Shown here: one piece after another, positions 5,454 through 8,253 of the stretch
Layout: the number at the start of each line of letters is the position of its first letter
How positions within the stretch are numbered: the stretch's first letter is position 1
Origin: an uncultured Clostridia bacterium
Lineage (GTDB): Bacteria > Bacillota > Clostridia > TANB77 > CAG-508
DNA length: 64,000 bases
Direction: 5' to 3'
Assembly: GCA_944390345.1 (NCBI GenBank)
Contig: CALXPP010000005.1
Coordinates: forward strand, 889-64,888
Program-made: the position numbers and the translations under genes
The notes under the pieces: generated by a model
Databases searched by the model: none
What the model was told of the DNA's origin: nothing
The model's input: only the letters and a program-made list of their open reading frames with translations

Positions 5454-8253
5454 TTAAAAACCTGATTTTTCACTCCAAGATAAATTATTTATTAAACTCC
5501 AGTCTGTAATACTATTATTTCCTGATAAATAGATATTCTTTAAACTACCACCATTGTTTGGATGCATATTTTTTATAATTTCCAAGGTTCTATATGTTTT
5601 AGTTTCTCCTGCTTCATTTTGTATTTGAAAAGTATCGTATAAGGTATTTTCTTCTAGCTTTAATGTTTCCAGTTTTTTTAGATTTTCTAAATTTGAAATA
5701 TCTGTTATTTTATTTTCATTTAAATTTAATGTTATTAGATTTGTTAATGCTTCTATACCAGATAAATCTTTTATTGATTGTCCTCTTAAGTTTAATTCTG
5801 TTAAATTTGGTAAATTAGCAGTATAGAAACCTGTTAAATCTAGATTAGCAGCATTAATACTACTATCCCAATAATTAAAATTTAATTTTGTTAAATTTGG
5901 TAAATTTATATTTTCCGGTATACTTTCTCTCCTAAATTCACTATCATCTATTGATATTAGTGTTGTATTTCCAGAAATCTGACTAAATAATTTTCTATAA
6001 CCCTCTATATCAAGTCCACTAGCTTTAATAGTTAAAGTATTCAATTTTGGCAAATTTGATAAGTCTGGATATGATATAAATCCACTCGTAGATGCATAAT
6101 AAAAATTTATATTTATCAATGAATTTGGTAAGATTACAGTGTATAAATGAGCTTGATTCATTGCTAAATTTGTCAATTTAGTGCATTTTGATAAATCTAA
6201 TGTATAATCTTCTTTTGAAGCTGAATATGTATTTTGATAAGAATATCTTAGATATGTTAATTCTGTACAATTTTCTAGTTGCTCTAACAAGCTCTCTTTT
6301 CCTCCTAAACAAATTCCACAATTATACCAAGTTCCATATAATCCAGTGCTTCCTGTACAGCGATTGATAGTTGGTTGTATTGTAGTTATATCAATATTTT
6401 CATTATTAATTGCAAATTGTCTAATACTAGTAATATTATTTAATAAAGTTAAATCAGTAACTGATGTTCCTCTTAAGTCTATCTCAACTAAACTTTTTGT
6501 ATTTGTAGCAAAACCAATATTTGATAATCCACTTATATTTACTAATCCTAAATATTTTAAATTTGTTAATTCCTTCAAAGTATCATTAATTACTGTATTG
6601 ATTTCTGTATTACTAAGTGAATTATTTTCTGAATTTGTTAGTTTCATATTATTTAATTTTAATGTACTTATTTTTTTATAATTTTTTATTAATTTAAAAT
6701 TTTCTTCAGATAGCGTCTGGCTAGATAAGTCTAATGAAGTAGTATTTTCATTTAATAAAAGCAATGTATATTTACTTGGTATAGAATAATTTGAACCACA
6801 ACCATTTATAATATTAACAATAGCATATAAGCTATCTGAATCCATATTTTCACAACCTAATAAATATAATTGTCTAATCGTTGAATAATTTTTTAAATAA
6901 GAAACATATTTTAAATTTGTGTTATTTCTTAAAGTTACATAGTTTAATTTATTATTGTTTTTCAAATATGCAAGTGCATTTGTAGAGCTGTCTTCTTTTG
7001 TTTCATTTATTCCTAAATTATTTGAATTAGCAAATAAGTATTTAAGACTACTCATATTATCTAAACCTTCTAAAGTCTCTAATAAATTACATTCAGCTCT
7101 TATTAAATATATATTTTTAAAATCAATTAGTGCTTGAAAAGATGTAATTTGATTATTATTAATTAATAAATACTTCACAGTTTCTTTTGTAACCTTAGAT
7201 AAATTGTTTAAAGGTGATATATCACTTAAATTTGATTTTATGCTAACATTATTTTGTTCTGTCGTAAAACGATTTTGAGAGATTGGATTATAACCAAATA
7301 TACCAAAATATTCTAAATTTGGCATATCTACATTTCCAATTCCTTTAGTAGTATCACATAAAATTTCTAATTGTTCATTTGAATTAATATTATTATTACT
7401 TAAAAGAAAATATAAATATTTTAGTTTACTTACCTTTCCTATTGCTGAATAATCTGATATTTTACAATTTTGAAAATATATATAATTTAAATTAATTGCA
7501 TCTTGAATACCATTTAAATTATCCTTTTCTATATTGGTAAAAGTAATTTCTTGAAGTGAACCTAAATTTGCCATTTTAGTTAAATCTAAATTTGGATTAT
7601 CTATGGTTATGCTTGTAATAGTTCTAATTTCATTTAAAGTAACTTCATCTTCGAAACCTAATGCCTCTATCCAATCTGCATCTTTTTCTTTATCAAATAC
7701 TACTTTTTCTAAATCTGTTTCTACTGCATTATCTACTGCACCAATTCTATTGTCATTACTTTCTTGGCAATAATATACTCTTAAATCACTTGTTACTCCA
7801 TATATGTCATTAAAATCTGCGTATATTCCTGTACCAGTTAAGCTATTTTCTCCACCTCTTAGTTGTTTAGAAATTTCTTCTGGTAATGCTGACTTTTCTA
7901 TAAAATAATATTCTTTATATGTTGAAGGATCTAAAAAATAATATGCACTATTTTGTGCTCTTTGAAAATATTGTTTTGTATTTGCTTCATTAATTAAACC
8001 ATCTAATTTATTATCATATTTGTCAACACTCTCATAGTATTTTACATATTCTTGCTGTAAAAATTCTTCTAAAACTGCCACACTTTGCATATATGTAGCA
8101 TTTTGTGCCTGAGTAATTATTCCATTATCTCCGTATAACTGCATTTAAACTTACTCCTGCTAATATAAGCATTACTATTATTGAGATTACTAAAGCTATT
8201 AGAGTTATTCCGTTTTTCTGTTTCAATATTTGAAATGATTTTCTTTTGTTCAT
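5454..8253 (-). CDS. Internalin-like leucine-rich-repeat surface protein with a type IV pilin-like N-terminus; the N-terminal 41 codons are in a different frame (+1 shift at CGG, plus 8131-8133)
   Basis: Long ORF 5454-8144 with many 22-residue LxxLxxLxLxxNxIxDI LRR units. Upstream is an AGGAGG-led ORF, ATG at 8253, reading MNKRKSFQILKQKNGITLIALVISIIVMLILAGVSLNAVIRR*. This is paralogous to the N-terminus of the 60675-62441 protein. A +1 shift joins ...LNAVI to GDNGIITQAQNA. Confidence 0.7.

Follow-up and report, generated by a model that had tools for sequence, protein, structure and literature searches.

A 64,000-nucleotide stretch from an uncultured Clostridia bacterium (contig CALXPP010000005.1, positions 889 to 64,888; hereafter the window) carries two large genes on the minus strand whose products begin with the same N-terminal module. 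One product carries leucine-rich repeats (LRR) and the other is a glycine-rich (Gly-rich) protein. A six-frame scan for the motif G-[hydrophobic]-T-L-I-x-L-V found exactly two copies in the 64 kb, and they open the LRR and the Gly-rich gene with their Gly(−1) codons at 8211 and 62393, respectively. The module resembles the N-terminus of type IV prepilins. Here, we analyze its sequence, predicted structure, distribution and genomic context.

In the Gly-rich gene, the leader peptide MNERKLFQGNGKKSNK (62394..62441, minus strand, as are all coordinates of both genes) precedes Gly17, after which a prepilin peptidase is proposed to cleave (codon 62391-62393). The LRR gene starts with the leader peptide MNKRKSFQILKQKN (8212-8253), followed by the Gly(−1) codon (8209-8211) and by the hydrophobic segment ITLIALVISIIVMLILAGVSLNA (8140-8208), behind which comes an out-of-frame tail. 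This first open reading frame (ORF) comprises 42 codons and a stop (8125..8253). The rest of the protein, a pilin-like N-domain (GDNGIITQAQNA...) and then internalin-like leucine-rich repeats, is encoded in a shifted frame at 5454..8132.

BLASTP returns a single significant alignment between the two proteins, over residues 1-140 (E 6e-19), and no other match. Between Gly(−1) and Ala(+24), SLNA included, the sequences hardly differ; they are similar through NGI.T.AQNA and weakly similar to about residue 140. The six-frame scan and BLASTP thus agree with the initial annotation that both proteins start with a shared module. The same annotation limited the resemblance to about 45 N-terminal residues and nothing else, which fits the near-identical stretch but misses the weak similarity beyond it. 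Judged from the sequence, this weaker portion past residue 45 appears to be a pilin-like domain. Along the 24 codons from Gly(−1), the two genes show six synonymous differences, including AGT versus TCT for serine, and no non-synonymous one. The signature is therefore under purifying selection and the identity of the module is kept at the protein level, which is more than recent DNA copying would explain.

Both window proteins possess a short basic leader ending in glycine directly before a hydrophobic stretch, a feature of class III signals. Textbook descriptions of these signals list Gly or Ala at position −1 and, usually, Glu or Asp at +5 (PMC3244431). The Pfam profile N_methyl (PF07963, IPR012902) aligns in register with both proteins (12.9 and 16.6 bits) and is the sole Pfam match of the Gly-rich protein (E 0.006). 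In NCBIfam, no prepilin match was found for either. Furthermore, a module profile built from 30 short members was compared with 177,635 distinct PDB sequences and gave seven matches at E<=10, headed by five type IV pilins: MshA (E 0.0047), PilA (0.024), two geopilins and Streptococcus sanguinis PilE1; the sixth is an archaeal flagellin. The pilin alignments are again in register, with Gly(−1) on Gly(−1) and GITLIALV on GFTLIELV.

The AlphaFold2 model of the Gly-rich protein, computed with 81 homologues, has a mean predicted local distance difference test score (pLDDT) of 86.7. A disordered leader (residues 1-16) is followed by a transmembrane helix (17-42), a break at the GENG motif, two further helices (47-76 and 85-95) and four β-strands (101-133). 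The first helix, starting at residue 16/17 and continued after the break by helix 47-76, agrees with the expected hydrophobic N-terminal α1 segment of about 20 residues. In this moderately confident model, residues 17-133 (62043..62393) make up a pilin-like module. A low-confidence linker (residues 134-146, 62004..62042) connects it to a large β-rich Gly module (residues 147-588; 60675..62003 including the stop codon). This cargo is modelled with high confidence, pLDDT being mostly >90, and the cargo (60678-62003) has no significant Foldseek match in the PDB. Its best, non-significant match (E 0.5) is the Gly-rich receptor-binding domain of gp38 from phage PP01. In the cargo alignment, runs of Gly motifs are near-invariant and the consensus includes a TCC (Thr-Cys-Cys) motif.

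The module is far from confined to the window. A word-indexed search with the first 77 residues as query gave 2,036 matches. Scored against 1.84 billion representatives, the module profile matched 32,141 proteins at E<=1e-3, of which 20,514 (clusters at 50% identity) also passed E<=1e-10. In nearly all of the 150 matches listed the module is N-terminal, in proteins of 60-1060 amino acids. Among 137 top representatives, where it is always N-terminal behind a leader of 6-64 amino acids, Gly(−1) is invariant (137/137), Ile(+1) and Ala(+5) are each present in 136/137, and position −2 is mostly K, N or R. N_methyl is the commonest Pfam family of this set (23/137 at E<=1e-3). The cargo includes several LRR types, GLUG, FGE-sulfatase-like, DUF285, GDSL lipases, the FctA isopeptide domain and Big_2.

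The best 80 module loci in species-representative genomes all lie in metagenome-assembled genomes (MAGs), nearly all labelled uncultured, and several MAGs supply more than one of them. They are assigned to Clostridia, one only to Bacillota, and originate from the guts of human, rabbit, chicken and deer. The G+C content of the module loci, window included, is 22 to 32%. Orthologues of the Gly-rich protein with diverged modules keep Gly or Ala at −1, which matches the peptidase specificity reported in PMC3244431, and have Ala, Ser or Gly at +5, never Glu. Similarly, 22 unique copies from the window lineage have Gly/Ala at −1, Ile at +1, Thr at +2 and Ala/Thr at +5, with several synonymous codons at each position; conserved residues encoded by varied codons count against loss of function. 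Exact-sequence look-ups of the Gly-rich protein and of the RsmF-like protein of the window matched no contig, and the 98% orthologue P0162 is located at a contig end. One family member is annotated as “pseudopilin PulG” by JGI, so the family had not been entirely overlooked; a literature search for the motif ITLIALV gave no result.

The decisive evidence is the genomic context in relatives. Using phmmer probes for pilus machinery (PilT and ComC sequences, with matches confirmed by Pfam), we located in locus L086 a module pilin of 143 amino acids, MKNQK followed by GITLIALVITIIVLLILAGVSIAMLTGENGILTKA…, inside a complete type IV pilus cluster. This pilin reaches 22.4 bits with N_methyl, above the cut-off of 21.2. 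The cluster further encodes a prepilin peptidase (A24_N_bact, 6e-30), PilB (T2SSE, 5e-103, with an MshEN domain), a PilT-like ATPase (T2SSE, 3e-43), a platform protein (T2SSF, 5e-29) and, upstream, a pilM/N-like protein of 539 amino acids with a weak PilN signal. Between pilD and pilB lie two more pilin-like genes whose products begin KG↓YTGVD (Asp+5) and KG↓ITLISLTIY (Ser+5), the arrow marking the predicted cleavage site.

A metagenome scan with the L086 PilB yielded 80 loci of 69-85% identity and 25-32% G+C, mostly from human gut. In each of the 38 loci with at least 3 kb of upstream sequence (38/38), a module pilin is present 1.2-3.5 kb upstream of pilB, its mature length ranging from 63 to 157 residues. 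The gene order is conserved: rplT, spoVA, rsmB, pilM/N, two transmembrane proteins, module pilin, pilD, two pilins, pilB, pilT, pilC, ROK, rpsB and tsf. Longer module genes (366-654 amino acids) occur within the same loci as pilus clusters. In L023 and L070, too, a Peptidase_A24 gene and a module gene are only 2-3 kb apart. The module signature is thus present on the cluster pilin of related gut Clostridia. The recovered clusters carry the module variant …VLLILAGV(S/T)IAMLTG and not the …VMLILAGVSLNATIG variant of the window. In loci L143-L166, the module pilin about 2 kb upstream of pilB extends only 63-70 residues past the predicted cleavage site; it is essentially the α1 helix alone and recalls truncated pilins of the geopilin type.

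Taken together, the class III signature, the selection on codons, the pilus-cluster context and the pilin matches in the PDB support the proposal, already contained in the initial annotation, that the shared segment is a prepilin N-terminus composed of a class III signal and an α1 helix. We consider that both window genes encode modular type IV pilins, with a probability of roughly 65%. Most likely, a type IV pilus serves to display the LRR and Gly-rich proteins, as adhesin-type cargo carried on it or passed through it. In the proposed layout, a short basic leader whose last residue is Gly would be followed by a hydrophobic α1N helix, a small pilin-like domain of helices and a sheet, a flexible linker and, finally, the large cargo. 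The hydrophobic segment would insert the protein into the membrane, and the prepilin peptidase (PilD, peptidase A24) would cut after Gly(−1); the new N-terminus may also be methylated. The N-terminal helix, near-identical to that of the small cluster pilin, could then be packed inside a type IV pilus core that PilB, PilC and PilM/N assemble, which would expose the cargo on the filament. Given the lack of Glu+5, the proteins would most likely sit where the filament begins or at its tip, like subunits of the GspK or CofB type; co-polymerization along the shaft may also occur. Should the Asp+5 pilin of the cluster be the major subunit, every protein with Ala+5 would occupy a tip or initiator position. 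Should the major subunit instead be the cluster pilin with Ala+5, the system would be an exception to the Glu+5 rule.

The closest known counterparts are the modular pilins, of which about 1,200 proteins in 264 architectures have been defined through IPR012902 (Raynaud et al. 2021, PMC8179133). As in PilB and PilC of S. sanguinis (PMC8179133), a short linker connects a class III pilin module with a bulky functional one, which is frequently an adhesin. Genes of this type need not encode the major pilin, and the AlphaFold model of the Gly-rich protein shares the layout. The resemblance to modular pilins suggested at first is borne out by the succession of module (17-133), linker (134-146) and cargo (147-588), and by the LRR cargo of the second gene. 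Differences exist as well: the modular pilins of PMC8179133 carry the IPR012902/N_methyl signature with Glu+5, whereas the present family has Ala+5 and falls mostly below the Pfam threshold. It is also far larger (20,514 clusters), is concentrated in uncultured low-GC gut Clostridia and has its genes scattered around the genome.

The comparison with tip or initiator minor (pseudo)pilins of the GspK and CofB/TcpB type is less close. Their identity to module proteins is about 5%, the α-domain insertion of GspK is not seen here, and no GspI/J partners were identified, the GspI-GspJ-GspK complex not having been specifically tested. The initial annotation likened Ala+5 to GspK-type proteins. The residue is indeed Ala, but the analogy is incomplete since here even the small pilin of the pilus cluster has Ala+5.

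With the pil clusters of Clostridium perfringens and Clostridium difficile, the recovered clusters share PilD with an A24 N-terminal domain, PilB with MshEN, PilT, PilC and PilM/N-like proteins, and both occur in Gram-positive spore formers. The characterized pilins of these two species start G↓FTL(I/V)E with Glu+5. In contrast, the module family starts G↓ITLIAL with Ala+5 and continues with a conserved TGxNGILTKAQ. Archaea offer a further parallel, as class III signals are found on non-pilin cargo in the sugar-binding proteins of the Sulfolobus bindosome (PMC3047682). Such archaeal proteins, including those of FlaFind type, resemble the module family in their many non-pilin cargoes, in −1 Gly/Ala after Lys/Arg and in the lack of Glu+5. 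They differ in that the module family is bacterial, its peptidase is of the PilD type and its cluster is type IVa pilus-like with PilT.

Several caveats attach to assigning the window genes to a type IV pilus. Both window proteins score under the Pfam N_methyl cut-off of 21.2 bits. However, a true cluster pilin (L128) reaches only 18.2 bits, so the threshold misses members and sub-threshold scores are not evidence against membership. The predicted structure, a comparison with pilins proposed at the outset, gave the helix, break, helix and sheet described above, but Foldseek searches of the full model and of its N-domain against the PDB gave no significant match and no pilin. Both window proteins have Ala where pilins usually have Glu/Asp at +5, a residue that is absent from some minor pilins as well. 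No pilus gene was detected in the 64-kb window by Pfam or by tblastn with the L086 proteins, in agreement with the initial annotation, and the closest relatives (L001-L005, L009-L016) likewise showed none within 10 kb of their module genes. Where relatives encode pili, rpsB-tsf is preceded by the cluster; in the window, a truncated sortase and a U32 peptidase occupy this position. An apparent absence of machinery from 1.24 Mb around module genes, obtained with regular expressions (GPTGSGKT, GGGDxKL, GFTLIE), was a false negative, as phmmer and Pfam found the L086 cluster.

Alternatively, in line with the plain signal-anchored proteins that the initial annotation allowed for, the pilin-derived module may in this organism serve only as a membrane anchor of type II topology, uncleaved or merely cleaved, which holds the LRR and Gly-rich proteins on the cell surface without assembly into a filament. 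Such proteins might resemble the archaeal surface proteins with class III signals that are not pilus subunits. Consistent with an anchor, the lack of machinery extends over the window and, in the closest relatives, over about 150 kb surrounding module genes, and Ala+5 removes a charge normally needed for pilin assembly. Moreover, the cargoes number in the thousands and are very different, module genes are scattered among housekeeping genes, and the Peptidase_A24 genes near module genes of L023 and L070 stand alone, with no ATPase in their vicinity. We nevertheless regard an exclusive anchor function as unlikely. The whole α1 region, including the extracellular TGxNGILTKAQ, is near-identical to that of the cluster pilin, which is expected if both pack together and unnecessary for a simple anchor. 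In addition, long module genes are also found inside loci that hold the pilus cluster.

The upstream regions raise a different explanation. About 90 nucleotides 5′ of the start codons are conserved between the LRR and the Gly-rich gene, and among relatives. The LRR leader (8254..8345, minus strand) contains a hairpin with arms GGAGAAGGG and CCTTTCTCC (8291-8315) and then the Shine–Dalgarno (SD) sequence AGGAGG (8264-8269). In the Gly-rich leader (62442..62530, minus strand) a hairpin with arms GGAGAAAAG and CTTTTCTCC (62477-62501) likewise precedes the SD. The hairpin (GGAGA…UCUCC) covaries in its upper stem between the two copies, occurs upstream of module genes in L005, L009 and L012 as well, and has minimum free energy z-scores of −2.4 and −3.0. 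The 3′ arm of the hairpin, UUUCUCC, resembles an anti-SD, and about 25 nucleotides separate it from the real SD AGGAGG downstream. The leader, for which Rfam holds no matching family, may act as a translational switch. In several different MAGs (loci L026, L048, L054, L055, L057, L063, L075, L079, L080 and L082), a long conserved hairpin with a T-run (…AACCTA…TAGGTTTTGTTGCTGTCTTTTTT) is found about 60-70 nucleotides upstream of module genes; it looks like a shared terminator or repeat.

Clustering of 1,155 ORFs from 89 loci did not reveal a dedicated neighbor such as a sorting enzyme; only Rpn-like PD-(D/E)XK nucleases and housekeeping genes recur. The former (PDDEXK_2, Rpn-like recombination-promoting nuclease/transposase) are the commonest neighbors of module genes (12/89 loci), and one lies beside a module gene in the window (63104-63934, plus strand) and another in L005 (8607-9512). 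Leader and N-terminal segment could accordingly be viewed mainly as a recombination or expression cassette, kept uniform by gene conversion between paralogues, a process known from families of variable surface proteins, with the likeness to pilins being secondary. The conserved upstream region with hairpin and SD, the nuclease neighbors and the frequency of orphan module fragments and disrupted paralogues would all fit. However, all differences between the window copies are synonymous (6 to 0) and many synonymous codons encode the same residues across lineages, a divergence which indicates purifying selection on the protein and not homogenization of DNA. Since the module is furthermore kept across 20,514 clusters with unrelated 5′ leaders, we judge the cassette explanation improbable.

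A conventional Sec signal peptide that is conserved by chance and that signal peptidase I removes behind the hydrophobic stretch (e.g., after SLNA) would account for the basic n-region, the hydrophobic core of 18-24 residues and the L-N-A of the window as a possible −3/−1 site, but it is very improbable given that the end of the hydrophobic stretch is not kept small in orthologues (IAM-L, KLV-T, GFL-K; A, M, S, V, L, K), that Gly −1, Ile +1 and Thr +2 are invariant at the n/h boundary, where Sec signals are unconstrained, and that the hydrophobic segment is modelled within the mature fold.

The LRR gene was initially annotated as one ORF (5454-8253). This does not hold, as the gene is frameshifted: the ORF from the ATG at 8253 ends at 8125 after 42 codons (...SLNAVIRR and stop), and the LRR body (listed as 5454-8144) is in another frame. 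Alignment with the Gly-rich gene places an extra C at 8133 (minus strand), within ATA-C-GGA-GAT. Across the site (8125-8140, minus strand) the message reads AUA-CGG-AGA-UAA. The inserted C creates the codon CGG, whose count is 0 in the 17,545 codons of the window ORFs. Because an independent assembly from the European Nucleotide Archive (L169, site ~230) has the same split into 42 and 896 amino acids, the frameshift represents a genuine allele, as opposed to a sequencing error. The window copy, interrupted just past the module, is probably a pseudogene, unless translation recovers the frame.

In relatives L001-L004, the orthologous gene has an independent frameshift (L001 ~10370-10390), again with a C before GGA (AGU-CGG-AAA-UAA). 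These sites could represent +1 recoding at an unused codon, or coincidence. A programmed +1 frameshift at CGG was set aside as a general explanation, as TAA nonsense codons or truncation account for the disruption of other paralogues; at the window site it may still operate. Module-bearing LRR paralogues are often broken soon after the module, by an in-frame TAA, a frameshift or truncation to an orphan module (L005 ~10333; L172 ~606; L170 3136-3318; L001-L004 10001-10387). In the assembly collection, 51 indexed blocks contain one such fragment of 128 amino acids (P0099). The frequent disruption of LRR paralogues suggests that this adhesin family undergoes rapid birth and death or is switched on and off.

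The remaining content of the window, which has a G+C of 26.7%, is largely of a housekeeping nature: an RsmF-like methyltransferase, MutL, three acetate kinases with phosphotransacetylase, a PASTA kinase, DapA/B and Dxs. Further genes encode glycosyltransferases with a Wzm/Wzt transporter, S2/EF-Ts and the U32 peptidase. The acetate kinases are tandem paralogues (11172-15914, minus strand), 51-58% mutually identical and directly downstream of a gene of the phosphotransacetylase/phosphotransbutyrylase family. Two adjacent genes on the plus strand (16056-17924 and 18229-20100) encode paralogues of 622/623 amino acids with 25% identity (E 1e-40) and no Pfam match. The ORF of 121 amino acids upstream of rpsB (57679-58044, minus strand) corresponds to the N-terminal part of a sortase. 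The sortase gene is intact in the relative L014 (203 amino acids, 1832-2440) and split in L173 (4986-5589); judging by these sequences, the window fragment is probably a decaying sortase gene.

Three aspects of the family are new: the Ala+5 signature reaches a cluster-encoded pilin; the members are very numerous, with a concentration in uncultured low-GC gut Clostridia; and profiles at their current thresholds leave the family largely undetected. The annotation of gut metagenomes would benefit from a dedicated profile, as the Pfam and NCBIfam thresholds miss most members. We also put forward, as a tentative and rather doubtful proposition, that low-GC gut Clostridia possess a type IV pilus whose cluster pilin and all sharers of its N-terminus lack the Glu+5 that is nearly universal elsewhere, and that this pilus, or just its peptidase and platform, provides a general route by which each genome displays dozens of large and rapidly evolving adhesins and enzymes. 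If true, this would be a pilin-signal secretome comparable to the archaeal class III signal proteins and undescribed for bacteria at such scale.

If the assignment of the window genes to modular pilins is correct, tens of thousands of unannotated sequence clusters from uncultured Clostridia of human and animal guts would gain a predicted location and export route. LRR adhesins, GLUG, FGE-sulfatase-like proteins, lipases and the Gly-rich module without a solved relative would then be pilus-displayed or anchored through a pilin signal. Lastly, these bacteria would provide a natural system in which Ala replaces Glu+5 across the whole pilin repertoire, one that tests the role of the N-terminal charge pair in pilin extraction and assembly.

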